This document shows positions 517-59,410 of a stretch of DNA of 64,000 nt, in pieces. The position numbers and the translations under genes are program-made. The DNA comes from Nannocystis bainbridge. GTDB lineage: Bacteria; Myxococcota_A; Polyangia; Nannocystales; Nannocystaceae. The notes under the pieces were generated by a model. The model saw only the letters and a list, made by a program, of their open reading frames with translations. It ran no database searches and had not been told where the DNA came from. Position 1 is the stretch's first letter. Each line of letters opens with the position of its first letter. The stretch lies in contig NZ_JAQNDL010000001.1 of the NCBI RefSeq assembly GCF_028368995.1, positions 4,288,001-4,352,000 of the forward strand, given 5' to 3'.

Positions 517-2301
517 TCAGCGCAATTCGAAGGTCCGCAGCACCGCTCGCCCCGCGAGCGTGCGCAGCCCGGGCGCCAGGCACCACGGGTACAGCCACCA
601 GAAGCCCGGCAGGATCGGCACCAGCGCCCGACCGGCCGCGGCCCCGGCGTGACGCGTCGCATCGCCCGGCGCGGTCACGACCAGCGCCCCCGCGGGCACC
701 GACGGATCGGCCGCGAATTGCAGGCGCGCGCCGAGGTCCCACATGCGAAGCAGGGCCACCCGGCGGATCGACGCCTCGTCGGCCGCGTGGTGCACGACGT
801 ACGGCGCTCGCGGCCCGCGGTAGCGCAGGCGGTCGAGCGGGCGCAGCAGCGACGCCTTCCACCCCGGCTTGCGCCGCGGCCGGGCGCCCTCGCCTTCTGC
901 CAGCGGGCGCGACATCAGCGTCCGCCACACCGCCTCGACCTCGGCGCCCGACAGCCACGCGATGTAGACCGCCAGCATCACCTGCACGAACGTGCCGACG
1001 TTCATCGCCACGTCGATCACCAGGTGCATGATCACGCCGACGCCGAGCCACAGCCGCTTGCCGCACAGCCACCGCAGCACCCACGCGTGCGCGCGCGGAC
1101 GGCGGGCCCGCAGCCACAGGTACGAGCCCACCAGCAGGGCCGGGAACGCCAGCACGCCGGCGACCACGAGCGCCTGCGCCTGCGCGCGCGACAGCTGCAC
1201 CGGGCCCTCGCCCGGGCTGTAGTAGTACCAGGCGGTCAGGCCGCCGACGTAGGCCAGCGCGCCGACGATCGCGGCGATCAGCGCGTACGAGCTCCAGCGC
1301 CGCCACGCCTGCACTTTCGGCCATGTCCCTTCGGACAGCTCGCGCTCGCACCGGCGCAGCGCCAGCCCGACCAGCGCCAGCGGGAACAGGGTCTCCCACG
1401 CCTTGGTGACCCACGTCGAGAGCGGCAGGAAGCCGATCATGTGCAGGAACGTGGCGACCTGGATCTGGAACGGGTGGCGGTAGAAGTGGTCGAGGCTGAG
1501 CGCGTAGAACAGCGCGGTGCCGTCGAACCACGTCAGGCCGCTCTTGAGCGCCCCGGTGGCGCAGTAGATGATGGCGAGCTGCAGCATCATCAGCCGCAGC
1601 GGCCACGCGGGGATCTGCCGCAGCGCGGGCACGACGACGCTGCCGGCCAGCAGCTCGCGCCGCCGTCGCCACCAGGTGTCGAGCGCGTAGGCCTCGCCCC
1701 AGCGGGTCAAGACGCCGAGGAACAGGAACACCCGCAGGACCGTGTCGCCGCCGCTGTAGAAGACGGGGCTGTAGCTGTAGAAGGTGTTGACGAGGAACCA
1801 GCTCAGCAGGGTGCTGAGGCGCGTCTTGATCCCGAGGATCATCGCCGTGACGCTGGCGCAGGTCAGGCCGAACACCGCCCACACGAAGGCCGGGTCGGCG
1901 CGCAGGTGGAACAGCGAGAACTTGGCCCACAGCGCCTGGACCACGCTCCACCAGCTCTCGAAGCCGTGCTCCGGGTCCCACAGCCGCCGCAGCTCGCCGC
2001 CGTAGTTCTTGCGCGCCATCGCCGGCAGCCACAGGCCCTCGTCGGTGAACAAGAACCGCAGCAGCGGGATCAGGTCGAGCAGCGTCCACAGCACGACCAC
2101 GCCGTAGACGATGCGCAGCAGCCCCGCCGGCCGCGGGTCGACCCGCTCGAGCCACAGTCGCCGCCACAGCTCGGGGCGCACCAAGAAGAACGCGAGCGCG
2201 CAGCCGAGGCCGAGCCACAGCGCACCTGTCGCAAGGGACATGTGCGCCGAGAGGTCGATCGCGGGCCCCTTGGCGGCCGGAGCGAGCAGCGCGGCCAGCA
2301 T
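517..2301 (-). CDS. HTTM-domain (SdpB / vitamin K-dependent gamma-carboxylase-like) multi-pass membrane protein with degenerate C-terminal DCC1-like domain
   Basis: Many TM segments; GGDTVLR, WPLRLMMLQLAIIYCATGALKSGLTWFDG and MNVGTF motifs; ATG at 2301 overlaps the upstream TGA (TGATG). Confidence 0.8.
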   Translation of the reverse strand: MLAALLAPAAKGPAIDLSAHMSLATGALWLGLGCALAFFLVRPELWRRLWLERVDPRPAGLLRIVYGVVVLWTLLDLIPLLRFLFTDEGLWLPAMARKNYGGELRRLWDPEHGFESWWSVVQALWAKFSLFHLRADPAFVWAVFGLTCASVTAMILGIKTRLSTLLSWFLVNTFYSYSPVFYSGGDTVLRVFLFLGVLTRWGEAYALDTWWRRRRELLAGSVVVPALRQIPAWPLRLMMLQLAIIYCATGALKSGLTWFDGTALFYALSLDHFYRHPFQIQVATFLHMIGFLPLSTWVTKAWETLFPLALVGLALRRCERELSEGTWPKVQAWRRWSSYALIAAIVGALAYVGGLTAWYYYSPGEGPVQLSRAQAQALVVAGVLAFPALLVGSYLWLRARRPRAHAWVLRWLCGKRLWLGVGVIMHLVIDVAMNVGTFVQVMLAVYIAWLSGAEVEAVWRTLMSRPLAEGEGARPRRKPGWKASLLRPLDRLRYRGPRAPYVVHHAADEASIRRVALLRMWDLGARLQFAADPSVPAGALVVTAPGDATRHAGAAAGRALVPILPGFWWLYPWCLAPGLRTLAGRAVLRTFELR

Positions 2302-3203
2302 CAATCACCCCCCCCGTCGGCCCCGCCGACCTCGGCCCCGCCCTCGTTGCCGCCGCCCTCGGCCGGCAGCGCCGGCTCGTCGCCGTCCTCGACCGGGGCC
2401 ACGTCGCGCTTGCGCTTGCCGTCGACGGCCCGTCGCCGCTCGAGGATCTTGGCCCGCGCCGCGGCCCGCTCGCGCCAGCTCGTGGTGTCGACCTCGACGA
2501 AGCTGCCGGCCGGCAGCGGCGCGAACCCGTAGCGGGCGCGGATCTGGTCGGGAAGCTGCGCGTGCGGGGTGGTCGCGCAGTCGAAGCCCTTGAGGTCCTC
2601 CTTGTAGAGCTTGAGCTCGAACGGGTCGAAGCCCATGGTCTCGATCGCCTTCGACGGGTGCGGCACCTTCGTCCACATCTTCGTGAAGTTGACCCGCACC
2701 GGCGGCTCGCCGCCGTGGGTGCGCGCCCACTCGCGGCAGACCCACGCGGCGTACGGCGACTGGTAGCGCTCCTGCTCGAGCAGCCGCCGGTTGATCTTGC
2801 CCATGCGGTCGTAGAAGAAGTACGGGTAGTCGCGCCGGCCGTAGATGTCGTGCAGCAGGTCGATCTCCTCGCCGGCCTGCGTCACCACCCGCACCTGCAA
2901 GAACATGTTGGTGCGGTGCGGGTTGGGGGCGAACATCGCCCAGCTCTGCACGCTCGAGGTGGCCCGCATGTAGGCGCCGGAGCGCAGCAGCTCGGCCAGC
3001 CGGCGGTTGAACCGCTCCGACAGCCCGCTCGCCGGGGTGGTGTGCTGCAGCAGCGCGACCGTGTGATAGAGGACGAACAGGCTGACCAGCAGCGCCGCCC
3101 ACCCGCGGTAGGCCCACGGCCCGTCGCCCACGTCCTCGGCCGGCGGCGCCCGCAGCAGCGCGTCGGCCAGCCTCGTCGTGCCGTCGTGGGATGGCCGACT
3201 CAC
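2301..3203 (-). CDS. SdpA/DUF5819-like partner of HTTM protein
   Basis: One N-terminal TM and QSWAMFAPNP motif; homologous to C-terminal domain of 3357..5921; start uncertain (GTG 3203 chosen, ORF is open to 3251). Confidence 0.7.
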   Translation of the reverse strand: MSRPSHDGTTRLADALLRAPPAEDVGDGPWAYRGWAALLVSLFVLYHTVALLQHTTPASGLSERFNRRLAELLRSGAYMRATSSVQSWAMFAPNPHRTNMFLQVRVVTQAGEEIDLLHDIYGRRDYPYFFYDRMGKINRRLLEQERYQSPYAAWVCREWARTHGGEPPVRVNFTKMWTKVPHPSKAIETMGFDPFELKLYKEDLKGFDCATTPHAQLPDQIRARYGFAPLPAGSFVEVDTTSWRERAAARAKILERRRAVDGKRKRDVAPVEDGDEPALPAEGGGNEGGAEVGGADGGGD

Positions 3204-3356
3204 GGGACATGCTCCTCGGGACATGTCGCTTTGGCCATCAATACAAGGCACCCCACGTGTCCCTCATGACATGTCCCATGCGCCAGCTTCAAAGATAACG
3301 AGGTTCCCACGCCGGACGGCCCCGGCGGCCCGGCGCCGTGCGGGGCCAGCCGCGGT

Positions 3357-5921: not shown

Positions 5922-6158
5922 GCGGGTGAGGCCGCCGACACTAGCACGGCGCAGACCTTCCTCAGCGCCCGCGGGCCACGCGCATATTTTGCGTGACTGG
6001 CGATCTAGAGGCTACTGGCGCGGCCTGGGCCGGGGAATCCGGCGGGCGCTCGAGATCGGGCACGGCCGCCCGGGAGCTGTCCCGAGAGACATCTCGCCGA
6101 GGCGGATCCGCCGTCGCCTCGACTATCGCGGCCGGGCGGGTTCGCGGTAGAGGAGAGC

Positions 6159-6668: not shown

Positions 6669-6682
6669 GGTACTCTGGCAGG

Positions 6683-8263
6683 GTGACCGCCCCCCGTCCG
6701 GCCGCGCTCGCGCTCGGGTTCGCCGCGCTCCTGTCCGCAGAGACAGGTTGCCGCAACGCCAACCTCGCCAGCGTCATGGCCCAGACGCCGAGCTACGAGC
6801 CCGAGGGCCAGACCCGCTGCGGCGTCGCGCGCAGCCACGCGCGGCCGCTGATCATCGAGTGGCCGGCGCACGACCGCAGCGAGCTCGAGACGCTGGTGGC
6901 CGAGGGCGAGCGCATGATCGCGGTCCGCTTCGCCGGCTGCGAGATGGAGCTGCTGCGCGGCTGCTCGGCCGCCGGCAGCTACCGCTACCAGGGCGTGCAG
7001 CCGAAGCGCGAGGACTACGTGTTCAAGCGGGCCGACGACCTCTACGCCAAGATCCCGCTCGGCGCGGCCAACCTCGAGGCGGAGCTCGAGCGCCACGGCG
7101 CGCTGACGCTCGGCATGACGGTGGTGGGCCGCTGGCAGGGCGGCCACGGGCGGCCGGCGCGGATCGATCTGCGCGGCGACTGCGATCAGGCGACGCACGT
7201 GATCTCGGGGCTGTCGGTCGGGGCGTTCCGCCTGTCCTCCGAGGCAGGTGCGGAGATCCGCGGCGAGGTCGGGTGGATGCAGGTGGGCGCCGGGGCCGGA
7301 TCATCTGCGGCGCGCGGGCTGGTGCGCAGCGACGGCGACCTCGCGGCCTGCGGCGACGCCGGCGGCGACGGCCCGCCGCACCGCTGCCGCGCGCTGCTGC
7401 GGGTCGAGGTCACGGCGATCCGCGAGCCGGCGGAGGTGGCGGCGGCGCGGGCTCGCCAGGTGTGCCCGCGCGACGCGGCGCTGGTCGAGGGCGGCCGCTT
7501 CCGCGCCAGCGTCGGCGGTCAGGTCGAGCTGGCCGATTTCTGCCTCGACCGCGAAGAGGTACGGGTGGCCGACTACGCCGCCTGCGCGGCCAAGGGGCCG
7601 TGCTCCGAGGCGGCCACGAGCGCCCGCTACAAGGGCGCGGACGAGGAGCTCGCGTGGGCCAACGGGCAGTGCAACGGCGACCGCGCCGGCCGGCGGCGCC
7701 ACCCGATCAACTGCATCAGCTGGAACCAGGCCGCGGCCTACTGCCAGTGGGCCGGCGGGCGCCTGCCGACCGAGGTCGAGTGGGAGTGGGCGGCCCGCGG
7801 CGGCGAGCAGGAGCGGACCTACGCGTGGGGCGAGCAGGAGCCGGGGCCGCGGCTGGTCAACGCCTGCGGGGAGGAGTGCGCGCGGGCGCGGGCCCGGCTG
7901 CAGCCGGCGCTCAAACATGGCCTTCAGGACATGCCCCCGGAGACATGGCTCAAGTTGCACGGCAAGAGCGACGGCGAGGTCGGCACGGCGCGGGTCGGCA
8001 GCTACGCCGCCGGGCGCGGCCGCGGGCAGGTCGCCGACCTGGCGGGCAACGTGTGGGAGTGGACCGCGAGCCAGGAGATCTCGTATCAGACCGGCGAGGA
8101 GCAGAACGTCGGCTGGGGCGGGCCTGACACCGGCCGCCGCGCCACTCGCGGTGGCGGCTTCCTCTCGACCGACGACAACGACGTGCGCACCACGGCCCGA
8201 CGCCTGCGCGACGTGAAGGACCGGCGGCCCGACCTCGGCTTCCGCTGCGCCTACGACCCGTGA
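6683..8263 (+). CDS. Lipoprotein with C-terminal FGE-sulfatase (SUMF1, C-type-lectin fold) domain
   Basis: GTG 6683 with signal peptide ending in Cys; HPINCISWNQA, RLPTEVEWEWAARG, DLAGNVWEW, GFRC. Confidence 0.8.
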   Translation: MTAPRPAALALGFAALLSAETGCRNANLASVMAQTPSYEPEGQTRCGVARSHARPLIIEWPAHDRSELETLVAEGERMIAVRFAGCEMELLRGCSAAGSYRYQGVQPKREDYVFKRADDLYAKIPLGAANLEAELERHGALTLGMTVVGRWQGGHGRPARIDLRGDCDQATHVISGLSVGAFRLSSEAGAEIRGEVGWMQVGAGAGSSAARGLVRSDGDLAACGDAGGDGPPHRCRALLRVEVTAIREPAEVAAARARQVCPRDAALVEGGRFRASVGGQVELADFCLDREEVRVADYAACAAKGPCSEAATSARYKGADEELAWANGQCNGDRAGRRRHPINCISWNQAAAYCQWAGGRLPTEVEWEWAARGGEQERTYAWGEQEPGPRLVNACGEECARARARLQPALKHGLQDMPPETWLKLHGKSDGEVGTARVGSYAAGRGRGQVADLAGNVWEWTASQEISYQTGEEQNVGWGGPDTGRRATRGGGFLSTDDNDVRTTARRLRDVKDRRPDLGFRCAYDP

Positions 8264-8350
8264 TCGCAGCATGTCCCTCGGGACGGTTTAATAAGGTGTC
8301 CTCGGGGACAGGTGATGCGAGGGGCCTTTACCTGTCCGAAGGGTCAGCTT

Positions 8351-10012: not shown

Positions 10013-12046
10013 TCAAGGCCCGGCCGCGCTCGCGGCCACCTGTTGCAGCAGGTCGAAGCGCGCCTGATAGAGCTCGGCGATCCGCCCCAGGCCCTCGATG
10101 TGATGGCCCTGGCCGGCGAATTCGACGAGCGTGACCGGCTTGCCGAGCGCGCGCGCCCTGTCGTGGAAAGCGCGCGACTCGCCGACCGGCACGCGCCAGT
10201 CGTTGCTGCCGTGGGTGAGGAGCAGCGGGGCGGCGAGCAGGTCGACGTGCGAGAGCGGACTGCGATCCTTCATGCGCGCCAGGTCCTCGGGGCGGCTCGG
10301 ATCGCCGCTCTCCAGCACCACCCAGTCGGGGATGTTGCACTGGTCGTGGAAGCTCTTGATGTCGGAGAAGCCGGCGTGGGCCAGGCCGAAGCCGAACTCG
10401 TAGCGCTCGGCATGTCCCTTGGTACCTGGCGGAAAGGTCAGAGCCCGCATGGTCGCGTAGCCGCCGTGGCTGCCGCCGAACACGCCGATCTGCGCCGGCT
10501 TCAGGCCGAGCGTGCGCTCGGTCCAGCGGGCGACGTGGAACAGGTCGACGATCTCGTCGCCGCCGAGGTCGCGGTCGTTGAGGGCCGCGAACGCCTTGCC
10601 GAAGCCGTCGCCGCCGCGCACCGTCGGCGACACGACGGTCAGGCCGGCCGCGCACATGACGTTGGCGAAGGTGCTGTAGTGGTTCTCGCCGCCGTAGAAC
10701 GCCTCGACGAGGGCGAGCCGGTGGCCGGGGTCCGCGGGCGGACGGCGCGGGGTGAGGACAAAGGCGTGCAGCTCGCGCGGCTTGCCGGTGGCCTTGTCGC
10801 GGTCGAAGGTCGGGATCTTGACCCGCTCGGCGCGGCACTGGGCGACGGCCTCGCGCACGGCGGGCGCGGGCCCGAGGCTGAAGCCGGGGCCGAACGCGGG
10901 GCCCTGGGCGTCGGCGTGGACCGGCTGGACGTTGAGCTCGAAGTACTGGTCGGGCGCCTCGTGGGTCCAGATCACCCGGCCGTCGCGGCCCTCGAGCACG
11001 TCGGCCGCGCCCGGCAGCGGGCGCGCGGCCAGGACCTTGCCGGTGCGCGGATCGATCACCGCCAGCGACGAGCCGAGCGGGCTGCGGTGCACGCCGACCA
11101 CGCCGATGGCGGTGATGAAGGCCGAGGTCAGGTCCTCGGTGAAGCGCGTGAGCTGCTTGATCGCACCTGTCTTGCGGGACAGGCTGTAGAGGTTGCGGTA
11201 GCCGTCGTCGTTGGCGAGCAGCAGCGCGGTGTCGGCGTCGAGCCAGCCCTCGAGCAGCTCGGCGTCGGTGCGCGTGACCTTGGGGTCGGTGAGCACGCGG
11301 ACGACCGGGCGCGCGGCCGTGAGGTCGACCGCGACGAGCTGGGTCCGGTTGCGATCGCCGTCGACCTGGGCGGCGAAGAACACCTCGCGGCCGTCGGGTG
11401 AGAACCGCGGCGACGACCACGTGAAGGTCAGGGCCGGCGTGTCGCAGACGACCTCGCGCGCCGCCTTGCTGGCGATGTCCAGGACGCGCAGGCAGGTGCG
11501 GTACGGCGGCGCCTCACCGGCGCGCGGGAGGTAGGCGATCTGCGATTCAGCGTCGTCGAGGCCGAATCCGTAGACGTAATCGTGGTCGGTGACCTGCTCG
11601 AGCGCCCCTGTCTTGAGATTCAGGGTCCATAGATTCATGCGCTCGTCATTGCGAGCATCGGCGTGCAGCCACAGCGTCGCGCTGGCGGCGTGGTGGTGCA
11701 GGCGCCACAGGCTGCGCTGGGACCAATCGACGTCCGAGACCTTGGTGGCCTGGATCGGGTCGCGGATCGAGTCGTCGGCGAGGTCGAGCACCTGCAGCTC
11801 GTAGCGCTCGCCGGTCTTCAGCACGAACAGCTTGCCGGTGCGCAGGCTCGGCATCCATTGCGTATACGGGAAGCCGGTGAGGAACGGCGCGAGGTCGACG
11901 GCGCGGTCGAAATAGCGGACCACGCCGACCTCGGCCTCGGGCTTGGCCGCGCCCGCGGGCGGCTCGCTGTTCGGATACGGTTTGGCCGCCCTCGGGGGGG
12001 CGCAGGCGGCCAGCAGGGTGAGCGTCGCGACGAGGGGAGTGCGCAC
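10013..12046 (-). CDS. S9 family (prolyl oligopeptidase/acylaminoacyl peptidase) lipoprotein
   Basis: Lipobox LAAC; beta-propeller-like N-terminus; GGSHGG nucleophile, HGSNDWRV, QGHH. Confidence 0.85.
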   Translation of the reverse strand: MRTPLVATLTLLAACAPPRAAKPYPNSEPPAGAAKPEAEVGVVRYFDRAVDLAPFLTGFPYTQWMPSLRTGKLFVLKTGERYELQVLDLADDSIRDPIQATKVSDVDWSQRSLWRLHHHAASATLWLHADARNDERMNLWTLNLKTGALEQVTDHDYVYGFGLDDAESQIAYLPRAGEAPPYRTCLRVLDIASKAAREVVCDTPALTFTWSSPRFSPDGREVFFAAQVDGDRNRTQLVAVDLTAARPVVRVLTDPKVTRTDAELLEGWLDADTALLLANDDGYRNLYSLSRKTGAIKQLTRFTEDLTSAFITAIGVVGVHRSPLGSSLAVIDPRTGKVLAARPLPGAADVLEGRDGRVIWTHEAPDQYFELNVQPVHADAQGPAFGPGFSLGPAPAVREAVAQCRAERVKIPTFDRDKATGKPRELHAFVLTPRRPPADPGHRLALVEAFYGGENHYSTFANVMCAAGLTVVSPTVRGGDGFGKAFAALNDRDLGGDEIVDLFHVARWTERTLGLKPAQIGVFGGSHGGYATMRALTFPPGTKGHAERYEFGFGLAHAGFSDIKSFHDQCNIPDWVVLESGDPSRPEDLARMKDRSPLSHVDLLAAPLLLTHGSNDWRVPVGESRAFHDRARALGKPVTLVEFAGQGHHIEGLGRIAELYQARFDLLQQVAASAAGP

Positions 12047-16200: not shown

Positions 16201-17113
16201 CCGAGGACGCGCGCTGCAGGCAGCGGTCGATCAGCGCCGCGAACCGGCTGTCGACCGCGGGCGCGACCTCCTGCAGCGGCCGCGGAGATGTCTCTTGGGA
16301 CAGGCGGGCCAGCTCGAGCGTGCTGGTCGCCTCGAGCGGCGGATGCCCGGCGCAGAGGATGTAGAGCAGCGCGCCGAGGGCGTAGATGTCGGAGCTGCGG
16401 GTGGCCGGCTCGGCGCGCCACAGCTCGGGCGCCATGTAATACGGCGTGCCGACGATCACCTCGTCGTCGGCGTCCTCTCCCGACGCCCGGCCCGCCATCG
16501 TGCTGTCGAGCGGCGCGACGATGTCGACGCGCGGGATCCCGAACTCGGCCGTGTCGCCGATATGGTTGTCGACCCCGAGCATCACCGGCGCCGGCGTCTT
16601 GATGTCGGGCCGCCGCGCGGCCCCCTGCGGCACCAGCTTGGCCAGCCCGAAGTCGAGCAGCTTGACCTCGCCGAGCTCGTTGCGGACCACGTTGGCGAGC
16701 TTGATGTCGCGGTGCAGCACGCCCTGGCGGTGCGCCGCCGCCAGCCCGCGGGCGAGGCCGACGCCGATCGTCAGCGCCTCCTGCCACGGCAAGGCGCTCT
16801 TGATGTCCGACAGCGGCTGGCCGCGGACGTACTCGGAGATGATGTAGAGCCGCCCCTCGAGCTCGCCGATGCGGTGGATCGCCATCACGTTCGGGTGGGC
16901 GATCCGGGCCGCGGCGCGGGCCTCGGTGACGAACCGCTCGCGCGTGCGCGGATTCGCGTCGCGGGCGTTGATGAACTTGATCGCTACCGGCCGGTCCAGG
17001 ATCGTGTCGTGACCCAGGAACACGACGCCCATGCTGCCGCTGCCGAGCCCGCGGACGAGGCGGTACTCATCGAACTGTTGTGGAAGGGTCCATTCGCCGC
17101 CGGCCGACATCAT
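13274..17113 (-). CDS. Ser/Thr kinase - nSTAND1-type NTPase - TM - FGE-sulfatase domain protein
   Basis: LGSGSMG, VAIK, HRDIK, DFG, GTPYYMAPE; NPYRGL, GDSGVGKSS, FIDQLEEL; a TM helix; EWEWERAARG, GNVWEW. Confidence 0.9.
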   Translation of the reverse strand: MMSAGGEWTLPQQFDEYRLVRGLGSGSMGVVFLGHDTILDRPVAIKFINARDANPRTRERFVTEARAAARIAHPNVMAIHRIGELEGRLYIISEYVRGQPLSDIKSALPWQEALTIGVGLARGLAAAHRQGVLHRDIKLANVVRNELGEVKLLDFGLAKLVPQGAARRPDIKTPAPVMLGVDNHIGDTAEFGIPRVDIVAPLDSTMAGRASGEDADDEVIVGTPYYMAPELWRAEPATRSSDIYALGALLYILCAGHPPLEATSTLELARLSQETSPRPLQEVAPAVDSRFAALIDRCLQRASSARFASADELCTALELLLTTGPIAEVIHGNPYRGLQAFEARHRAVFFGRVAEIRTVVDRLRVQSFVLVAGDSGVGKSSLCRAGVLPQASQPPGVGGRTWSSLAMIPGRRPLQTLVSALASHFTLKEEALRTLLMGEPEGLVRLLARRQGKDRGFVLFIDQLEELVTLSEAPQVEPFGRFLTAFASGVPSLRLLASVRGDFLTRAAALPQLGPFINPAVYLLTPLTREGMREAIVGPAALQGVHFGSEGLVDELIQAGVEGSLPLLQFALAELWEAREAGSKIITAADLERIGRVTGALARHADNVVAGLPPSQRIAVRRLLMRLVTIEDTRASLPVEDLVSGDPASEAALEALVRGRLVVAREAQDGTVHEIAHEALIRNWSALQRWINEERESREIRHRLEQAAVEWQRLGQGQVGLWTAEQLVESDKLEAASLRAREREFLAASAAELRRRRWLRGVAIATLPLVAGLAFAGVKVQEARALAGKVDDQLTRAREAFAAAHAHDQEARTSRAHALRKFDGRDVPGGEEEWARTLHRFDEADRTYKEAISASEVALGFDPAHPEAKQLIADALYERAALAEVRYRPELAEELVARVRLYDDGTRQARWSAPATLSVAVGPDAATVKLARYERDDDHRYALVEPRELGLAPVAPLELAPGSYLLELAIDGREPIFYPVLLGRGEAKQLALDIPLASSIPPGFAFVAAGAALFGSADEDTIRRKFFFAAPQHEVTTGSYAIARRETTWREWIAFLDDLPAAERALRTPGVEADKFHVGVRLEPVERGWRLVMKAGEATYAARMGEPLRYAGRDALAEQDWLDMPVSAISWDDANAYLRWLDRSGRVPGARLCSEWEWERAARGADARNFPHADSITRADANYDETYARVPEHGGPDVGGAHPASRSPFGVDDLVGNVWEWTTSSLAPNEGIIRGGAYYYDEVTCRSVNRYPWSPDTRDSTLGLRVCASVAPARPTGGS

Positions 17114-19042: not shown

Positions 19043-19115
19043 GACATGTTTAAAGAATCATGTCTTTAAAGACATGTCTGATTCGACATGCCCTTCACAA
19101 CATGTCCCATAGACG
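19043..19115. repeat. Phased array of 14-bp TGTC-N6-GACA palindromes
   Basis: Exact copies at 19061 and 19075, flanked by degenerate units in the same 14-bp register. Confidence 0.8.
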
Positions 19116-46908: not shown

Positions 46909-47108
46909 TGTCCCCCGGGACAGCACCGCTCGCGGCCGGCCTGTCTCTCGAGACAGCTCATTTCACCGACGTGAGCGATGAATCGAGCTGTCCCATGAGA
47001 CAGGCACTCATGTCTCACGAGACATGCTCAAGAGCACATGTCCCAGACATCATGCTCTCTGCCACATGTCTCTCGCGACATGCCGCCGAGGACATGTCCC
47101 TTTCGCCA
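46909..47108. repeat. Cluster of TGTC-N6-GACA palindromes, including 7 contiguous 14-bp units (47011-47108)
   Basis: Exact copies at 46909, 46942, 46989, 47011 and 47067; degenerate units in register at 47025, 47039, 47053, 47081, 47095. Confidence 0.85.
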
Positions 47109-47112
47109 TCCT

Positions 47113-47730: not shown

Positions 47731-47808
47731 GCCTTCGATGGCGGCCCTCAGTGTGCGCCCACCGCCTGCGCTCTGGCAAGACTCAGGCCAAAGCGCCCGC
47801 CGGCCGCC

Positions 47809-48672
47809 TCAGCGGACCAGTCGGGTGCGGGGTCGCGGCTGGCAGCGCGGGCAAAACGCCCCGCTGCGGCCGCCGGACACGAAACCGACCAGCGCCTGGC
47901 CGCAGCGCGGGCACGGCTCCTCGGCGCGGCCGTAGACGCGCAGATCGTCCTGATTGCGGCCCACTTCGCCCTCCACGTTGCGGAAGTCCTTCAGCGTCGT
48001 CCCGCCGTTGTCGATCCCCCGCTGCAGCACAGCCACGATCGTGCCCGCCAGTCGCTCCCACGCGCTCGCGTGCAGCCGCTGCGCCTCCACCATGGGGAAG
48101 ATCCCCGCCGCGAACAGCGCCTCGACCGCGTAGATATTGCCGAGCCCGGCGATCGCCTCCTGGTCGAGCAGCGCGTCGCGGATCGGCCGGCGCGACGATC
48201 CCAGCCGCTCGGCCAGCACCGCGCCGCCGAACCCCTTCTCGAGCGGCTCCGGCCCCAGCGTCCCCAGCGGCTCGCTCGCCATCAGATCCTGCAGCCGCCC
48301 CGCCCGCAGCCCGCCGAAGCGGCGCGGGTCCACCAGCCGGACCTCGCGGTCGTCGCCCAGACGCAGCGCGAAGTGGGTGTGCGCCACCTTCGGCTGGGCC
48401 GTCGTCGTCACGCCGCAGCGCCCGCTCATCCCCAGGTGGATCACCAGCCCGTTGGTCTCCCCGTCCGGATCTGCGAACTCCCACACGATGTACTTGCCGC
48501 GTCTGCGGATGTCCTTCGGGACATTGTCCTTCAGACAGGCGAGATTCTCCTCCGCCCAGCTCTTGCCGACCCGCAGCTTGAACGCGCTGCGCCACACCTC
48601 GACCACCGGCGCGCGCAGCTGCGCCGCCTGCAGCCCGCGGCGGACCGACTCGACCTCAGGCAGCTCCGGCAC
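47809..48672 (-). CDS. mutM: Formamidopyrimidine-DNA glycosylase
   Basis: MPELPEVE, RRGKY, HLGMSG, DPRRFG, GLGNIY, C4 zinc finger. Confidence 0.97.
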   Translation of the reverse strand: MPELPEVESVRRGLQAAQLRAPVVEVWRSAFKLRVGKSWAEENLACLKDNVPKDIRRRGKYIVWEFADPDGETNGLVIHLGMSGRCGVTTTAQPKVAHTHFALRLGDDREVRLVDPRRFGGLRAGRLQDLMASEPLGTLGPEPLEKGFGGAVLAERLGSSRRPIRDALLDQEAIAGLGNIYAVEALFAAGIFPMVEAQRLHASAWERLAGTIVAVLQRGIDNGGTTLKDFRNVEGEVGRNQDDLRVYGRAEEPCPRCGQALVGFVSGGRSGAFCPRCQPRPRTRLVR

Positions 48673-49504: not shown

Positions 49505-49616
49505 GCTCGCACCTCGACCTGTCCCTCAGGACATCTGATTCCCGACCTCGCGCCGCGAATGACCTGTCCCTCGGGACATATCGCCTCGCGCGCGTCGACC
49601 TGTCCCTGCGGCCACA

Positions 49617-50675
49617 TCACTCGCGGGCCCGCCCTTCGTCCAGCGCCAGGCTCGCGTAGACCTCGACCGGCGGCTCACGGCGCCGGCCGGCCGCCCAGCG
49701 CAGCGCAGCCGCCCCGCCGATCATCGCCGCATTGTCGCCGCAGTAGCGCAGCGGCGGCGCCCGCAGCACGAACCCCTCGCGGCTCGCCGCCTCGGCCAGC
49801 GCCGCCCGCAGCCCGCCGTTCGCCGACACCCCGCCGACGATCGTCACCAGCTTCGCGCCCACCCGTTTGCGGGCCACGCGCAGTTTCGCCACCAGCACCG
49901 CCACCACCGCCGCCTGGAACGACGCGCACACATCGGCCAGCGCCTGCCGCGACGACGGTTGCCCGTGTTGATCGACGTACACCGCCACCGCCGTCTTGAG
50001 CCCCGAGAACGAGAACTCGAGGTTCTCGCGCGACCCCAGCATCGCCCGCGGGAACGCCACCGCCGTCGGGTCGCCCTCCGCCGCCAGTCGATCGATCACC
50101 GGCCCGCCGGGGTAGCCGAGCCCGAGCAGCTTCGCCGCCTTGTCGAACGCCTCCCCCGCCGCGTCGTCGCGCGTGCTGCCGAGCACCTCGTAGCGGCCGA
50201 GCCCTTGCACGTGCACCAGCTCGCTGTGCCCGCCTGACACCGACAGCGCCAGGTGCGGCGTGAACTCGGCCGGCGGTACCTCGTCGTCCCCGAGGAACGG
50301 CGACACCAGGTGACCTTCCATGTGGTGCACCCCGACCAGCGGCAGACCTGTCGCAAGGGACAGCCCGCGCGCCAGCTGCACCGCCACCAGCAGCGCCCCC
50401 ACCAGCCCTGGCCCCTCGGTCACCCCGATCGCGTCGAACCACTCGAAGCCGACCCCCGCGCGTGCCAGCGCCTCGCGGACCACCGGCACCGCCGCCGTCA
50501 GGTGATGGCGACTCGCCAGCTCCGGCACCACCCCGCCGAACTGCGCGTGCAGCTCGACCTGCGAGGCGATCACGCTCACGCGCACATGCAGCCCCTCGAC
50601 CACGGCGCAGGCCGTCTCGTCACACGACGACTCGAGCGCGAGGATGCGGGGACCGGCCATCGACCTTTCGGTCAC
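49617..50675 (-). CDS. tsaD: tRNA t6A threonylcarbamoyltransferase
   Basis: LESSCDET, GGVVPELASRHH, HHMEGH, SGGH, DDAAGEAFDK, DNAAMIG. Confidence 0.97.
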   Translation of the reverse strand: MTERSMAGPRILALESSCDETACAVVEGLHVRVSVIASQVELHAQFGGVVPELASRHHLTAAVPVVREALARAGVGFEWFDAIGVTEGPGLVGALLVAVQLARGLSLATGLPLVGVHHMEGHLVSPFLGDDEVPPAEFTPHLALSVSGGHSELVHVQGLGRYEVLGSTRDDAAGEAFDKAAKLLGLGYPGGPVIDRLAAEGDPTAVAFPRAMLGSRENLEFSFSGLKTAVAVYVDQHGQPSSRQALADVCASFQAAVVAVLVAKLRVARKRVGAKLVTIVGGVSANGGLRAALAEAASREGFVLRAPPLRYCGDNAAMIGGAAALRWAAGRRREPPVEVYASLALDEGRARE

Positions 50676-52921
50676 GGCGCAGGGAGCTTGCGCTGGAGCG
50701 AGCGCAACTGCGCGCGGACCGTGGTGGCGTAGCGCGCCTTGGGGTCGAGTTCAAGATAGCGCTCGTATGCGTGGACCGCGGTCGCGACCTCGCCGAGCTC
50801 TTGCGCGATCACCCCGAGGGCCAGCTGCGCGTCGGCCAGCCCCGCATCGGCCTCGACCGCCGCCTTGGCGGCCGGCAGGGCCTCCGCGAACTTGCCCTGA
50901 TCGAGCCGCGCATTGGCCAGCAGCGCCTGCGCCTCCGCGTAGCCCGGCGCCTCCGTCACCAGCTCGACCAGCGTCGCCTCGGCGTCCTTCGCCTTGCCGT
51001 TCTTGTATTGCTTCTGCGCCGCCTCGAGCTTCGCCTGCTGCTCCGGCGAGATCGGCGTCCCCGGCGGCGGCGCCACCGCGTTCGTGGGCTCCGTCGCTGG
51101 CGGCGGCTCGGGCGCAGGTTCGATCACCGCGACCTTCTCGGGCGTCGTCGGCTCCGTCTTCGCCGGCTCGACCCTCGCCGGCTCGACCTTCTGCGGCTCC
51201 GGCTCCGGCTGGGCCCCCGCCACCGGCTCGACCGCCTGCTTGCTCGCCCCCGCCAGCAACCTGTCCCTTGGGACATCTGCCGAAGTCGGCCGCCACAGCA
51301 GCGCTGCCACCGCCGCGGCGCCCACCGCCATCAACCCCCACGGCCACAGCGAGCGTCGCCGCGGCGCCTCTTCGGCCGCCACCGCGAAGTTCGCCGCCGA
51401 CACCTGCGACGGCGCCGGCGTCACTCCCGAGTTCATCGCCAGCGTCTGCGCCACCAGCTCGTTGAGGCGACCGAGGTCCGCCGCGCTCTCCGAGAGCAGC
51501 GGCTGCCCGTCGCCTGGCGACGACTCGAACGCGCTGATCGTCGGGATCGCGCCGCTGTGTTCGCGCCTGCGCACGATCACCGAAGAGGATGGACGCGCCC
51601 GCGGCGTCGGCACGTCGCGCGGCATCACCAGCTCGCCGACGGCCTCCGCGCTCGGCGCTCCCATCGGCGACGCGATCGTGAACGGGCCCAGGCGATCGGT
51701 CACGCGATCAGGATGACCCACCGGGGTCACCTCTGGCGAGTCACCTGGCCCGTGAGACTCGTCCGGAATCCCGCCGACCAGCACATCGTCGTGCTCCGCC
51801 CCGCCGGAGCCCGGGAACGGCTGCGGGTAACTCGGCATCGGCGGCAGATCGGCCGCCGCCTGGGCCGGCGGCGTGAGCTCGGGCGGCGGCACCTGGATCG
51901 CCATCGAAGTCGCCTTGTGGAGGTCCCACAGCTCCAGGTTGCCCTCGACCGGCGTCTCTTGCGACTGCTCCAGCGCCGACTCGTGCGGCTCGAGCAGCAG
52001 CCCCTTGAAGTAGAGCTCGCTGACGTGCTCGAGCGCCTGCAGGTCGTCGAGGCCCGAGTCGTCGATCGCCTGGATGATCGTCCGCCGGGCGTTGAAGCGG
52101 CGCAGGATCGTCTGCTCCTGTGGCGTCAGCTCCGGGTCCGACTTCGCCGCCAGGCTCGTGTCGATGATGAGCACGTGGTCGAGCGGCGGCAGCCCCTCGA
52201 GCAGGCGGCCCCACTCGTCGACCCGCCGCATCCCCTCCATCAACAGGCTCTGCGTCGACTCCTCGATCGTCGGCACCCGGCTGATCGCCTTGAACTCGAC
52301 CTCGAACCGGCCGTCGCTGAGCCCCAGCAGCCGGAACACCGCCGCGTCCGCTTGCAGCCGCCCCATCTCCGCGTCGATCAGCCGCCCGTCGCGGAACCAC
52401 ACCGCCGCCCGCCCCAGGTCCGTCTCGAACTCGATCGTCCCGCTCTTGCGCGAGATCTCGATCGTCTGCATCAGGTCCACGATCGCCATGTCGGCGAGCT
52501 GCCCGCTGAACTTCGTACGCGCGTCCTTCTTGCCGATCCGCTCCTGCTGCTTTCGTTGCAGCAGCATCTTCACGCGGACCATGATCTCTTTGACGTAGAT
52601 CGGCCGCGTCAGGTAGTCGTCGACGCCGAGCTCGAGCCCGTGGACCTTGTCTTCCAGCTCGGTGGCCGAGGTCAGGAAGATGAAGGGGATCTGGCCCCAC
52701 TTGGCGTGGCTCTTGACGATCCGGCAGAACTCGAAGCCGCTGCCGTCGGGTAGCCGCGTATCCGACACGATCAGCTCAGGATCCGTCAGATCGAGGAACT
52801 GCAGCGCCTGCAGCATGTTCTCGGCCGCGGTGATGCTGTAGCCGGCCTTGCGGAGGCTGACCTCGAGCACCCGCCGCGTCCGGGCGTCCGCGTCGACGAT
52901 CAGCAGGTTTTGCCGGGCCAT
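50672..52921 (-). CDS. Response regulator receiver + DUF4388/PATAN-like domain + Pro-rich linker + TM + TPR
   Basis: Receiver (LIVD, SDT, FLTS, DDYLTRP); FSGQL...DLMQ...SRKSG; TM helix; C-terminal TPR ending YERYLELDP. Confidence 0.85.
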   Translation of the reverse strand: MARQNLLIVDADARTRRVLEVSLRKAGYSITAAENMLQALQFLDLTDPELIVSDTRLPDGSGFEFCRIVKSHAKWGQIPFIFLTSATELEDKVHGLELGVDDYLTRPIYVKEIMVRVKMLLQRKQQERIGKKDARTKFSGQLADMAIVDLMQTIEISRKSGTIEFETDLGRAAVWFRDGRLIDAEMGRLQADAAVFRLLGLSDGRFEVEFKAISRVPTIEESTQSLLMEGMRRVDEWGRLLEGLPPLDHVLIIDTSLAAKSDPELTPQEQTILRRFNARRTIIQAIDDSGLDDLQALEHVSELYFKGLLLEPHESALEQSQETPVEGNLELWDLHKATSMAIQVPPPELTPPAQAAADLPPMPSYPQPFPGSGGAEHDDVLVGGIPDESHGPGDSPEVTPVGHPDRVTDRLGPFTIASPMGAPSAEAVGELVMPRDVPTPRARPSSSVIVRRREHSGAIPTISAFESSPGDGQPLLSESAADLGRLNELVAQTLAMNSGVTPAPSQVSAANFAVAAEEAPRRRSLWPWGLMAVGAAAVAALLWRPTSADVPRDRLLAGASKQAVEPVAGAQPEPEPQKVEPARVEPAKTEPTTPEKVAVIEPAPEPPPATEPTNAVAPPPGTPISPEQQAKLEAAQKQYKNGKAKDAEATLVELVTEAPGYAEAQALLANARLDQGKFAEALPAAKAAVEADAGLADAQLALGVIAQELGEVATAVHAYERYLELDPKARYATTVRAQLRSLQRKLPAP

Positions 52922-52989
52922 GTGCCCTCACCTGCGGGGGAGCCCCCGGCTCCCCGGCTCCACGACGCGCCTGCTCCCCCGGAATTCCC

Positions 52990-57348: not shown

Positions 57349-57349
57349 C

Positions 57350-57994: not shown

Positions 57995-58034
57995 GCTCGC
58001 GGAGTAAGAAGAGCCCTCCCTTCTGTCAAGCAGC

Positions 58035-59207
58035 ATGTCCGAGCTGTTGAACCAGCGACTCCGTCGCCACCTCGCCGCGCTGCATGCCGAAGGCCTCGCG
58101 CGCGAGCTGCCGCAGATCGGTCAGCGTGACGGAGTCCGCTACCAGCTCGACGGCGCCTGGGTCACCGGCTTCTGCAGCAACGACTACCTCGGTCTTGCCA
58201 ACCACCCGCGCCTGCGCCCCTCGAACTTCGCCACGCTCGCGTCGGGTGACGCGGCTGGTGCCACCGCTTCCCGACTCGTCGCCGGCGACCTTCCCGCGCA
58301 CCGCGCCGCCGAGCAGGCCCTCGCCGCCCTGGCTGGCTCGGACGACGCCGTCCTGTTCCCCAGCGGTTTCCAGCTCAACGTCGGCGTGCTGCCCGCTCTG
58401 ATCGAGCCGGACGACACCGTTTTTAGCGACGCGCTCAACCACGCCAGCCTCATCGACGGACTACGCCTTGCCCGCGCCCGTCCGACGATCCTCCCGCATC
58501 GCACCGCTCCACCGCCGATCGCCACCCCGCGCTGGTGGGTGACCGAATCGATCTTCTCTATGGACGGCGACACCGCCGAGCCCGCTCGCCTGCGCGAGTT
58601 CAGCGAGCGCGGCGGCATGCTCTACCTGGACGAGGCCCACAGCCTCGGCCTCTTCCCTGGCGGCGCAGGCTTCGCCCGTCACCACGGCATTCGTACCTCG
58701 GTGCTCATGGGTGGCCTCGGCAAAGCGTTCGGTCTGGCCGGGGCCTTCGCCGCCGGCAGCCGCGAAGTCTGCACGTGGATCCGCACCCGCGCCCGCAGCT
58801 TCGTGTTCAGCACCGGCAACCCGCCCGCGCTCGCCGAACAGGCCCGGCTCGCTGCGACTCTGCTGACCGGTCCCGACGGCGACGAGCGCCGCGCCCGCCT
58901 GTGGAACAACGCCCGGCTCCTGGCCGCCGCCCTCGAGCGCACCCCGCCGGTCTCCCCCATCTTCCCCGTGCTCATCGGCGCCAACCAGCTCGCCGTGACG
59001 ATCAGTCATGCGCTGCGCGAACGCGGCTGGCATGTCCAGGCGATCCGCCCGCCCACCGTCCCGGTCGGCACTGCCCGCCTGCGACTCACCGTCACCGCCG
59101 ATCACGACGAAGCGCAAATCCACGGCCTCGTCGCCGATCTCCGCACCCTTCTGCAGCGGCACGGCCTCTCGCTCGCCGACACCCAGCCGCTTACCGACCC
59201 GCGCTGA
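58035..59207 (+). CDS. bioF: 8-amino-7-oxononanoate synthase-like (alpha-oxoamine synthase family)
   Basis: FCSNDYLGL, SRLVAG, DALNHASLIDG, ESIFSMDGD, DEAH, GKAFG, IRPPTVP..TARLR. Confidence 0.8.
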   Translation: MSELLNQRLRRHLAALHAEGLARELPQIGQRDGVRYQLDGAWVTGFCSNDYLGLANHPRLRPSNFATLASGDAAGATASRLVAGDLPAHRAAEQALAALAGSDDAVLFPSGFQLNVGVLPALIEPDDTVFSDALNHASLIDGLRLARARPTILPHRTAPPPIATPRWWVTESIFSMDGDTAEPARLREFSERGGMLYLDEAHSLGLFPGGAGFARHHGIRTSVLMGGLGKAFGLAGAFAAGSREVCTWIRTRARSFVFSTGNPPALAEQARLAATLLTGPDGDERRARLWNNARLLAAALERTPPVSPIFPVLIGANQLAVTISHALRERGWHVQAIRPPTVPVGTARLRLTVTADHDEAQIHGLVADLRTLLQRHGLSLADTQPLTDPR

Positions 59208-59219
59208 GCGCCCTTTCGC

Positions 59220-59410
59220 TGTCCCTCGGGACATGTCTCTAAAGACATGCCGAGGCACATATCCACCTGGTCTTTGAGCCATGTTGCAGCGGGGTCACCG
59301 CCACAACTCGCTCGTCGCCCAGAATCATCTGTCTCTTGGGACAGCTCCGACGACGGCGGATCGAAACAGCCGAGCCCAGCGGCCTGCGCTGACGACTGTC
59401 CCCAAGGACA
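59220..59410. repeat. Cluster of TGTC-N6-GACA palindromes between convergent bioF and mnmE
   Basis: Exact copies at 59220, 59234, 59330, 59397. Confidence 0.85.

Follow-up and report, generated by a model that had tools for sequence, protein, structure and literature searches.

A spaced dyad, TGTC-N6-GACA, abundant at gene ends in the genus Nannocystis, looks like a candidate docking site of a dimeric DNA-binding protein

What is the 14-bp spaced palindrome that recurs throughout this part of the genome of the soil bacterium Nannocystis bainbridge, and what might read it? In the window (the whole 64,000-nucleotide stretch analysed here) the initial annotation listed 40 exact copies of TGTC-N6-GACA as a lower bound, and estimated that fewer than one would be expected by chance. 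All 40 coordinates are exact, and the window contains no further exact copies. Dinucleotide-preserving shuffles (n=100) contained a mean of 0.78 copies and at most 4.

Counting TGTC-Nk-GACA over the entire genome (11.05 Mb), as the initial annotation proposed, places the excess at a single spacing. The tally is 3663 at k=6 and 29–175 at each other k from 0 to 19, including the codon-phase-matched spacers (66 at k=3, 48 at k=9, 63 at k=12). Using our own crude GC3-based gene calls, whose starts are imprecise, gene interiors hold 1252 sense-orientation copies at k=6 versus 33 at k=5 and 88 at k=7, and non-coding DNA holds 2067 versus 12–37 at other spacings. The excess is thus ∼20-fold in genes and ∼90-fold in non-coding DNA. 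One-mismatch copies, also remarked on earlier, number 8008 at k=6 versus 1421–3428 at k=4, 5, 7, and 8. The density is 0.33 exact copies per kb, rising to ∼0.8 per kb with the one-mismatch excess included.

The consensus is rCM-TGTCC-N4-GGACA-KGy. The spacer, described initially as fixed in length and free in sequence, is indeed always 6 bp, but its sequence is constrained: position 5 is C in 75% of copies and position 10 is G in 72%, which makes the core TGTCC-N4-GGACA. As had been noticed, the flanks extend the dyad, here to ∼18–20 bp; beyond this, copies share no common flanks. The half-site TGTCC alone is not enriched (12351 occurrences; compositionally matched 5-mers have a median of 11114), which identifies the dyad as the unit; a partner half with at most two mismatches lies beside 72% of the 3806 CATGTCC occurrences. 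All five contigs carry dyads, at 26–105 per 200 kb, with no concentration near ori or ter, the point that a proposed plot of density along the chromosome was to address.

The copies in the window are listed below; no strand is assigned to the dyads, and strands in brackets are those of genes or ORFs.

1324..1337, exact copy within ORF 517-2301(-) (no Pfam match)
2227..2240, exact dyad 60 nt past the stop of ORF 2301-3251(-), at the uncertain 5′ end of ORF 517-2301(-)
3196..3285, exact dyad (3258-3271) 85 nt past the stop of ORF 3357-5921(-), beside degenerate units in 14-bp register (3196-3237, 3258-3285)
6078..6091, exact copy close to where ORF 5993-8263(+), with an FGE-sulfatase domain, is predicted to begin
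6732..6745, exact copy within the same ORF 5993-8263(+)
8297..8310, exact dyad 33 nt past the stop of ORF 5993-8263(+)
11168..11181, exact dyad inside Peptidase_S9 gene 10013-12046(-)
16289..16302, exact dyad inside kinase/nSTAND1/FGE-sulfatase gene 13274-17113(-)
19061..19102, array of three abutting 14-bp units (0, 0, and 2 mismatches), starting 86 nt past the stop of DUF7790 gene 17631-18974(+), which converges with 19444-24174(-)
20475..20488, exact copy within the UvrD/AddA-like helicase gene body
22776..22789, exact copy in ORF 19444-24174(-), a short way upstream of its helicase domain
23067..23860, six exact dyads (23067, 23310, 23472, 23628, 23736, 23847) in ∼108–160 bp tandem repeats
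29443..29456, exact dyad in ORF 29175-30704(-), of doubtful reality and without a Pfam match
29920..29933, exact dyad inside the same doubtful ORF
30676..30717, array of three units (0, 1, and 1 mismatches) in the overlap of two uncertain ORFs
31789..31802, exact copy upstream of dnaX, where no gene is called (31318-32092)
37965..38006, array of three units (2, 0, and 2 mismatches) in a convergent junction; its exact unit (37979) follows the stop of ORF 37028-37948(+) by 30 nt, and the palindrome reaches 24 nt
44032..44045, exact dyad in dynamin-like GTPase gene 42924-45977(+)
44318..44331, exact dyad in the same GTPase gene
45563..45576, exact dyad in the same GTPase gene
46909..47108, five exact dyads (46909, 46942, 46989, 47011, 47067) and degenerate units, filling the convergent junction between the RNase HII gene (stop 46906) and an ECF sigma gene (stop 47113)
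48510..48523, exact dyad inside fpg gene 47809-48672(-)
49520..49578, pair of exact copies following the stop of tsaD (49617-50675(-)) by 83 and 38 nt, upstream of an rRNA adenine dimethylase gene
50349..50362, exact copy within tsaD
51262..51275, exact copy in response-regulator/TPR gene 50672-52921(-), within a variable linker
59220..59410, four exact dyads 12–189 nt past the stop of aminotransferase gene 58035-59207(+); those at 59220 and 59234 abut each other

The initial annotation placed copies within genes in different frames and read this as constraint on DNA rather than protein. In-gene copies do occupy all three frames and impose rare codons: exact dyads hold 14.7% of all ACA codons in a genome with a GC3 of 0.937. 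Some of the supposed in-gene copies are doubtful, however, including the six at 23067-23847. The stretch 23067..23860 of an ORF has a GC3 of 0.74–0.82 versus 0.96–1.0 in the gene body, a weak coding signal, and is probably non-coding DNA 3′ of the stop of gene 24171-27122(-).

Dyads favor the 3′ ends of genes. An exact copy is found in 476 of 1025 convergent intergenic regions (712 when one mismatch is allowed), 487 of 2228 tandem regions, and 91 of 760 divergent regions; control spacings occur in 2–10 regions per class. In tandem regions the density falls from 2.5 per kb directly 3′ of the stop to ∼0.5 per kb by 200 nt. Dyads also abut one another: the genome contains 972 arrays of 3–8 units in strict 14-bp register, compared with 0–2 at periods of 12, 13, 15, and 16, and the spacer sequence differs from unit to unit within an array. 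Gene-end association and phased arrays, both missed by the initial annotation, are the most informative features of the dyad. The gene-end bias could simply mark where insertions and substitutions are tolerated, as has been argued for REP and uptake sequences.

A proposed survey of relatives found the dyad in all 11 genomes of the genus. One sister genus shows a faint trace of it, and a survey of 200 further genomes from the phylum did not find it. Between two species ∼90% identical, 50 aligned coding sites retain TGTC at 0.95 and GACA at 0.985 identity, versus 0.85 for the spacer and 0.81–0.84 for the flanks. At 40 aligned non-coding sites of the same pair, half-sites are conserved at 0.83 and 0.85 versus 0.71 and 0.66, values that anchoring of the aligner on the motif may have inflated; in the 380-kb comparison, 77 of 167 sites fall in unalignable DNA. 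A Fisher test for half-site conservation, on counts rebuilt from the proportions, gives ∼2e-15. Over longer distances the motif persists while its positions change between clades. Among ten orthologous convergent junctions, a site with at most one mismatch is present in nine in genome G000 versus one in G009, and of 63 orthologous junctions nine carry a site in both genomes versus 6.7 expected (p = 0.095, underpowered). Junction-level presence is not maintained across the deep split of the genus, so individual sites are either dispensable or turn over quickly, as expected for a selfish or drive-maintained element. The dyad at 44032 is common to six close species and missing from the same place in three distant genus members, and that at 45563 is kept in eight of the nine genus genomes compared. 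At 44318, a 27-nt indel, in frame and seen against the distant species, carries the dyad, and among species its half-sites are constant while the spacer varies. Four of the six in-gene copies examined lack an indel relative to distant species; the tsaD copy at 50349, for example, differs by a few point substitutions.

Recognition looks to occur at the DNA level, with fixed half-sites that vary independently and no pairing covariation. Mutual information between mirrored positions 5/10 and 6/9 is 0.007–0.012, Watson–Crick complementarity at solitary sites (n=1549) equals expectation at each mirrored pair, and there is no consistent preference for compensatory over non-compensatory double variants. 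We considered RNA wobble as the cause of strand asymmetries among degenerate copies and rejected it in favor of replication-strand mutational skew; all variant types track leading-strand G/T skew, including those without a wobble pair.

The dyad looks like a previously undescribed candidate site on which a paired DNA-binding protein would dock. Tentatively, and at slightly less than an even chance, we favor a DNA-level dyad read on double-stranded DNA by a putative homodimer acting at gene ends. Each subunit would contact one half-site, and dimers would sit side by side on arrays, where units abut every 14 bp and three units span about four helical turns. Selection or a homogenizing drive would maintain the sites. 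Once bound, the protein would mark off the ends of genes, chiefly at convergent junctions, perhaps as an RNA polymerase roadblock or insulator, or as a topological or nucleoid anchor. The 434 repressor (ACAA-N6-TTGT), MetJ on metbox arrays, and the omega protein on heptad arrays act at a handful of promoter sites. The operators of such small dimeric repressors resemble the dyad in its 14-bp length, four to five fixed bases per half, and free center, and abutting units would likewise allow cooperative side-by-side binding; unlike them, dyads number in the thousands and lie mostly at gene ends. A dimeric protein site, one of the options first raised, is the best supported, but its segregation-factor or RacA-like version is not supported, since copies are scattered across the five contigs without crowding near ori or ter. 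RacA ram, parS, matS, and Noc/SlmA sites, also palindromic (13–16 bp) and bound by dimeric chromosome-organizing proteins, occur in tens of copies in confined regions. Taken as a whole, the initial interpretation is partly supported.

Among the alternatives, a self-DNA tag comparable to HIP1 or DUS/USS, read by uptake, recombination, or methylation machinery and accumulating by molecular drive where tolerated, is rather unlikely but the strongest. In known uptake sequences (Neisseria DUS, Pasteurellaceae USS), each asymmetric word acts alone, and inverted pairs of the word are enriched at gene ends. The dyad shares their density (∼0.3–1 per kb), gene-end and convergent enrichment, lineage specificity, and tolerant in-gene positions, its copies arising by substitution in less conserved parts of conserved genes (flanks as above, versus a region average of ∼0.90); turnover of positions under a persistent motif also fits. 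Yet only the full dyad is enriched, and drive alone does not predict strict 14-bp phasing; phased arrays are not known among uptake sequences. The annotation's comparison with HIP1 (GCGATCGC), the cyanobacterial highly iterated palindrome, holds as an analogy. HIP1 is reported to be conserved between genomes above its surroundings (PMC5861425), to be recognized by known methylases, and to be quasi-periodic along the chromosome (PMC5861425, PMC13756078). Both are hyper-abundant short palindromes of a single lineage, within and between genes and conserved above their surroundings, but the two differ in sequence, and HIP1 is a contiguous octamer whereas the dyad is spaced with a variable center, favors gene 3′ ends, and forms phased arrays. 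The suggested search for a co-occurring methylase found none: the distribution of the motif is not shared by the single conserved-looking Type I HsdM/HsdS pair tested, and no C5 methylase family match was found. A REP-like selfish hairpin, copied as single-stranded DNA by a not-yet-recognized enzyme, is improbable. REP, BIME, and REPIN families comprise hundreds to thousands of palindromic units, often clustered, after stops and between convergent genes, with genus- or species-specific sequences. The dyad matches them in copy number, restriction to one genus, clustering (arrays would equal BIME or REPIN clusters), and 3′ location (convergent > tandem > divergent), and the 44318 indel fits too. 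For the REP-like option raised earlier, location agrees but membership does not: PF01797 (Y1/RAYT) has no match in the 11 genus genomes, several of which are in 1–5 contigs; the few IS-like repeats in G000 (2–3 copies each) have ends unrelated to the dyad; the unit is only ∼18–20 bp, without common flanks; gene interiors contain 1252 copies or more, mostly without an indel where examined; and compensatory stem changes are absent.

An RNA-level element, in which UGUCC-N4-GGACA would read identically from either strand as a bidirectional terminator or 3′-end stabilizing hairpin, is highly improbable. It would suit the position directly 3′ of stops and the coverage of two thirds of convergent junctions, and canonical terminators (hairpin plus T-run) are not in excess in the 16 kb scanned (44000-60000; 4 found versus 5.1 expected), a result that equally suits the favored dimer reading. 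Extended dyads fold at -17.8 (the 37965..38006 array) and -20.7 kcal/mol, but typical single units reach only -5.7 to -9.1 kcal/mol (z-scores -0.5 to -2.3), no U tract accompanies the dyads, and many copies are in genes. Compensatory changes are lacking, sense-orientation U.G and C.A at positions 5/10 are equally frequent (104 versus 110), and the wobble-like bias at positions 3/12 follows the replication strand and extends to non-wobble variants. Scarcely credible is a by-product of context-specific mutation or repair bias (very-short-patch-like), without reader or function. In-gene copies do appear by point substitution, and the mutational skew of degenerate copies is strongly strand-specific; however, known repair biases yield at most ∼2-fold enrichment, far from the values here, a two-part target, its gap exactly 6 bp and its units phased at 14 bp, would still need a sequence-specific dimeric reader, and the gene-end gradient is left without explanation.

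The half-site letters invite comparison with the E. coli-type LexA box, CTGT-N8-ACAG, and the CRP-family or MrpC-type site, TGTY-N8-RACA, which share TGT...ACA. The consensus of solitary sites, C-TGTC-N6-GACA-G, fits the LexA box in its letters, but the 350 nt upstream of the genome's only lexA contain no dyad. The MrpC-type spacing, TGTC-N8-GACA, is the rarest genome-wide, with 29 copies.

The dyad TGTC-N6-GACA is over-represented throughout the genome of Nannocystis bainbridge, and at one spacing only. A search of the window returned the 40 copies listed in the initial annotation, each where it had been placed, and no others. Fewer than one had been expected by chance, an estimate borne out by 100 dinucleotide-preserving shuffles (mean 0.78, maximum 4); G+C is 68–73% across the window, which corresponds to C1:4288001–4352000. 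The whole assembly (G000; 11.05 Mb in five contigs, 71.5% G+C) contains 3663 copies with a spacer length k of 6 and 29–175 at each other k from 0 to 19. Spacings that share the same codon phase (k = 3, 9 and 12) occur genome-wide 66, 48 and 63 times. This comparison of spacings with codon-phase controls, proposed in the initial annotation as a test, finds an excess specific to k = 6, and the claim therefore stands. Sense-oriented gene interiors, where counts are upper bounds, hold 1252 exact copies at k = 6 versus 33 (k = 5) and 88 (k = 7), and the 2.54 Mb outside called genes holds 2067 versus 12–37 at control spacings. The excess over neighbouring spacings is thus ∼20-fold in genes and ∼90-fold in non-coding DNA. 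There are 8008 one-mismatch copies at k = 6 and 1421–3428 at neighbouring spacings, an excess that corresponds to roughly 5000 further degenerate copies genome-wide. Copies lie on all contigs at 26–105 per 200-kb bin, with no ori- or ter-proximal concentration in these bins over all contigs. The dyad is in this respect unlike RacA ram, parS and matS sites, which are confined to an ori- or ter-proximal domain, and the earlier suggestion of a segregation factor or RacA-type regional site finds no support in this distribution.

A sequence logo of all 3663 copies reads r-C-[A/C]-TGTC-C-y-n-n-r-G-GACA-[T/G]-G-y. The spacer had been described as fixed in length and free in sequence; its length of 6 is indeed specific, but its sequence is not free, with C at position 5 in 75% and G at position 10 in 72% of copies (positions numbered 1–14 along the dyad). 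The dyad symmetry continues two to three bases outward, as the flanks had first suggested, and nothing shared among copies was found beyond ∼20 bp. The half-site alone is not enriched (12351 TGTCC; compositionally matched 5-mers have a median of 11114), and 72% of the 3806 CATGTCC sequences have a partner half, with ≤2 mismatches, at the right distance. Together these results indicate that the dyad is the unit. A lone half-site as the real unit is ruled out, since only the dyad is enriched.

Dyads also form phased arrays. The palindromic octamer most over-represented in the genome, GACATGTC (2237 copies, 30-fold), owes its abundance to the abutting of two dyad units. Gaps between consecutive exact copies peak at 14, 28, 42 and 56 bp (144, 88, 61 and 36 cases, respectively). 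Allowing ≤2 mismatches per unit, a genome-wide search at period 14 identified 972 arrays of three to eight units, and the same search at periods 12, 13, 15 and 16 identified 0–2. Spacers mostly differ between the units of one array, indicating that recent tandem duplication does not account for most arrays. Five of the arrays in the window serve as examples; others are present.

Examples of phased dyad arrays in the window
19061–19102, array
30676–30717, array
37965–38006, array
47067–47108, array
59220–59247, array

The densest clusters in the genome, with seven to nine exact dyads each (G000:C2:1217411–1217868, C2:2323808–2324259 and C3:586272–586576), sit within long ORF calls, in tandem repeats with periods of ∼21–48 bp. 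Such minisatellite-like expansions may be seeded by the dyad or may carry it along.

Sites accumulate immediately downstream of stop codons. Genes were called as stop-to-stop ORFs with GC3 ≥0.82 and GC3 > GC1 > GC2, the first ATG or GTG being taken as the start; these calls are crude, with exact stops and imprecise starts. Over the final 400 nt of 5673 genes there are ∼10 site centres per 20-bp bin, and the first five such bins after the stop hold 282, 384, 285, 262 and 191, for 1404 site-to-gene-end pairs ≤100 nt past the stop. Between tandem genes, density falls from 2.5/kb within 25 nt of the stop to ∼0.5/kb beyond 200 nt, and no fixed stop-to-dyad distance was found. Allowing one mismatch, about two thirds to 70% of convergent junctions carry a dyad.

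Dyads (k = 6) in intergenic regions of G000, with control spacings k = 5 and 7
Convergent (n = 1025): exact 476, ≤1 mismatch 712; controls, exact 2–10, ≤1 mismatch 72–127
Tandem (n = 2228): exact 487, ≤1 mismatch 869; controls, exact 6–9, ≤1 mismatch 185–222
Divergent (n = 760; may hide small genes, and many long regions probably hold uncalled genes): exact 91, ≤1 mismatch 210; controls, exact 4–9, ≤1 mismatch 61–72

The window conforms to this pattern: 16 of the 17 copies outside called ORFs lie ≤190 nt downstream of a called stop, the exception being the copy at 31789. It encodes ordinary housekeeping and signalling functions, with dnaX, RNase HII, fpg, rRNA dimethylase, tsaD and yidC among them. 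Six copies at 23067–23847 fall where the coding signal of a long ORF is weak (GC3 0.74–0.82 versus 0.96–1.0 in the helicase body) and are probably non-coding tandem repeats behind the stop of the upstream gene. This UvrD/AddA-like ORF (19444–24174, minus strand) contains a weakly coding stretch of ∼1.2 kb upstream of its helicase domain (window 22700–24174), made of Pro/Arg/Ser-rich tandem repeats of ∼108–160 bp with one dyad per repeat, and its annotated start is probably too far upstream. Two other window genes (13274–17113, minus strand, and 5993–8263, plus strand) encode FGE-sulfatase-like C-terminal domains, one of them fused to a Ser/Thr kinase and an nSTAND1 NTPase.

Copies inside genes, among them those in tsaD, fpg and a dynamin-like gene, occupy all three reading frames (201, 575 and 655 copies); that the frames differ had been noticed from the window alone. 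Every frame requires an A/T-ending codon, where the initial annotation had seen such codons often, in a genome with a GC3 of 0.937. Exact dyads contain 14.7% of the ACA codons and 5.1% of the TGT codons in called genes. Three-frame occurrence and forced A/T-ending codons uphold the proposal that the constraint acts at the DNA level.

The dyad is restricted to one genus. The 16-mer CTGTCC-N4-GGACAG occurs 413 times in G000 and 23–567 times in each of the 10 other Nannocystis genomes, against 0–3 for a reversed-pattern control. Among 30 relatives it occurs 39 times in one other genus of the family, eight times in another and 0–2 times elsewhere, and across 200 more genomes sampled evenly from the phylum its maximum is four. 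Within the genus, we compared G000 with a species ∼90% identical to it over one 380-kb syntenic stretch, in which 90 of 167 sites were alignable. For coding sites, a Fisher test on counts rebuilt from the proportions gave ∼2e-15.

Conservation of aligned dyads between two species of Nannocystis (proportion identical)
Coding, 50 sites: TGTC 0.95, GACA 0.985, spacer 0.85, flanks 0.81–0.84
Non-coding, 40 sites: TGTC 0.83, GACA 0.85, spacer 0.71, flanks 0.66 (aligner anchoring on the motif may inflate these values)

Over longer distances individual sites are replaced. The in-gene copies at 44032, 44318, 45563, 48510, 50349 and 51262 are common to six close species across 9 kb of synteny and are mostly missing at that place in three distant members of the genus. 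A few point substitutions separate the tsaD copy at 50349 from its distant counterpart. The copy at 44318 lies on a 27-nt in-frame indel relative to the distant members (window 44304–44331, in a dynamin-like GTPase gene), and among species its spacer varies while both half-sites are invariant. This indel points to short insertions, as opposed to substitution, as the route by which some in-gene copies arise. Intergenic clusters are unalignable across species, but at these places every species carries dyads of its own. In the distant genus member G009 (median protein identity 66%, 800 kb compared), exact sites number 0.94, 0.27 and 0.13 per kb in convergent, tandem and divergent regions, respectively. 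Nine of 63 orthologous junctions carry a site in both G000 and G009 versus 6.7 expected (p = 0.095, an underpowered comparison), and none of these nine has an identical 14-mer. At 10 orthologous convergent junctions, a site is present in nine in G000 and in one in G009. The order of the classes is thus the same in both genomes and the junction sites are not shared, indicating that the motif is maintained while individual sites turn over.

On sequence grounds, we tentatively read the dyad as the site of a putative protein acting at gene ends, a reading to which we give nearly even weight. Fixed half-sites that degenerate independently, exact spacing, abutting 14-bp units with differing centres, a lack of asymmetry relative to transcription and halves that are conserved where the spacer is not all fit a cooperative homodimeric protein that binds double-stranded DNA. 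Such a homodimer would occupy the double-stranded dyad and bind cooperatively along arrays, in which three 14-bp units would span about four helical turns. The stop-codon gradient and the ∼70% coverage of convergent junctions point to gene ends as the place of action, where the protein might be a polymerase roadblock or insulator, or a topological or nucleoid anchor. A more specific and, in our view, unlikely version is that a dedicated, abundant dimer polymerises on 14-bp phased TGTCC-N4-GGACA arrays and thereby marks gene ends as an orientation-independent terminator, insulator or supercoil barrier. Roughly two thirds of convergent junctions would be covered in this way, in a high-GC genome of 11–13 Mb with no excess of intrinsic terminators in the 16 kb scanned, and the in-gene copies would be overflow of the same selective or conversion pressure.

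That the dyad instead acts as an RNA element seems very unlikely. Mutual information at mirrored positions is 0.007 (5/10) and 0.012 (6/9), a weak signal at positions 0/15 vanishes once array members are separated from solitary sites, and at no mirrored position of 1549 solitary sites do Watson-Crick pairs depart from expectation. Compensatory doubles hold no consistent advantage over non-compensatory ones: relative to control spacings, TGCC..GGCA is enriched 2.6-fold and its non-compensatory partners 2.2- and 1.8-fold, GGTC..GACC is the least enriched double of its set, and TGTT..AACA (51 versus ∼10) is the one exception. An intrinsic terminator would be expected to combine a stable, GC-rich hairpin with a U run, whereas single units form weak RNA hairpins (−5.7 to −9.1 kcal/mol) and the oriented logo shows no T run downstream of the dyad. 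Likewise, hairpin-plus-T terminators do not exceed chance in the 16 kb scanned (4 versus 5.1 expected), and Rfam gives no match in the window at gathering score. One-mismatch variants after stops at first resembled an RNA wobble signature in the sense strand (U·G 178 versus C·A 98), with a wobble-like bias of 137 versus 68 at positions 12/3. This bias corresponds more closely to the replication strand than to the transcription strand and is as strong in variants without a wobble pair (e.g. T3>G 496 versus A12>C 205), so we attribute it to leading-strand G/T mutational skew and reject the signature. Degenerate dyads on the G-rich (leading) strand of G000 make up a strand-specific mutation reporter: G- or T-adding variants exceed their mirror images 2–2.8-fold (A12>G 564 versus T3>C 226; C4>T 245 versus G11>A 111), far above the bulk GC skew of 5–10%. 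Pure mutational bias as the source of the dyad itself we regard as less likely still than an RNA element.

Two further alternatives share the location of the dyad after stop codons and between convergent genes, a distribution also seen for REP elements and uptake sequences, perhaps only through tolerance. A REP-like mobile hairpin, one of the options in the initial annotation, is quite unlikely. REP elements need a cognate Y1 transposase, and none of the 11 Nannocystis genomes has a match to PF01797 (Y1/RAYT), a family matched in eight other relatives and six of 14 control genomes. Moreover, REP elements are extragenic and their stems are kept by pairing, whereas many dyads lie in gene interiors and mirrored positions lack pairing covariation. 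Insertion sequences as the source were likewise rejected; G000 has few IS-like repeats (2–3 copies), and their ends are unrelated to the dyad. A self-tag or drive, HIP1- or DUS-like, has a modest probability. Site turnover between the clades of G000 and G009 and the origin of in-gene copies by substitution favour it, as does the gene-end distribution of uptake sequences. Uptake words (DUS/USS) are asymmetric and enriched singly, unlike a dyad whose half-site alone is unenriched. HIP1 is the closest analogue (PMC5861425, PMC13756078). The suggested likeness to HIP1 is upheld in abundance (over-representation by one to two orders of magnitude), in presence both within and between genes, and in conservation above the surroundings, the last in one species pair over 380 kb and not across the deep split of the genus. 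It does not extend to the sequence or to cognate enzymes; HIP1 is GCGATCGC with cognate orphan methylases, whereas the dyad is bipartite, biased to gene ends and arranged in phased arrays, and neither the one HsdM/HsdS pair compared nor a PF00145 search yielded a cognate methylase for it.

The methylase candidates in G000 include a Type I HsdM/HsdS pair with no HsdR next to it (G000:C2:1539556–1542280). Close HsdS orthologues (76–91%) occur in only five close species and weak matches in five distant, motif-bearing members of the genus, so the pair is not co-distributed with the motif and was rejected as its methylase. This HsdS is 419 aa long with only one specificity domain detected, and a stop codon is present within its matches from two close species. 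The C5 methylase family PF00145 gave no match, and PF01555 (N6_N4 methylase) gave 12. Among regulators, CRP-family and MrpC sites have the spacing TGT-N10-ACA, and the corresponding TGTC-N8-GACA is the rarest of all spacings (29 copies). The 350 nt upstream of lexA (the single PF01726 match in the genome) contain no TGTC-N6-GACA, and a LexA box was rejected on this ground. The lexA upstream region (locus L165 1400–1450, G000:C1) does hold an GTATACACCCGTTCAG stretch, unrelated to the dyad, which we take to resemble a Myxococcus-type LexA box.

The initial annotation recognised no described element with this consensus, and that judgement holds for REP/RAYT, DUS/USS, regional organisers, CRP/MrpC sites, the LexA box and intrinsic terminators, whose defining tests the dyad fails. 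We found no description of the dyad in Nannocystis or myxobacteria in a literature search that left most subscription journals outside its coverage, so that a prior description is possible. The dyad is a lineage-specific iterated palindrome. HIP1, REP, DUS/USS and Chi each drew attention to an aspect of chromosome biology, and to our knowledge HIP1 is unsolved after three decades. The dyad is unusually informative by comparison: an exact-spaced bipartite word with nearly a thousand 14-bp phased arrays, a steep stop-codon gradient and a sharp phylogenetic boundary (11 of 11 genus genomes, faint in one sister genus, none in 200 others of the phylum). This boundary should bring a reader protein within reach of phylogenetic profiling or pull-down. 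If such a reader acts on transcription ends or supercoiling, the dyad would be a new gene punctuation for large high-GC genomes. For annotators, it is a genus marker and a source of rare codons and unalignable intergenic DNA. The contig ends of the G000 assembly share repeats of 3.5–12 kb that are 99.4–99.9% identical (C1:4515656–4536530, C2:3012272–3033751, C5:710378–717528 and C2:1–3618), which probably explain where the assembly stops.
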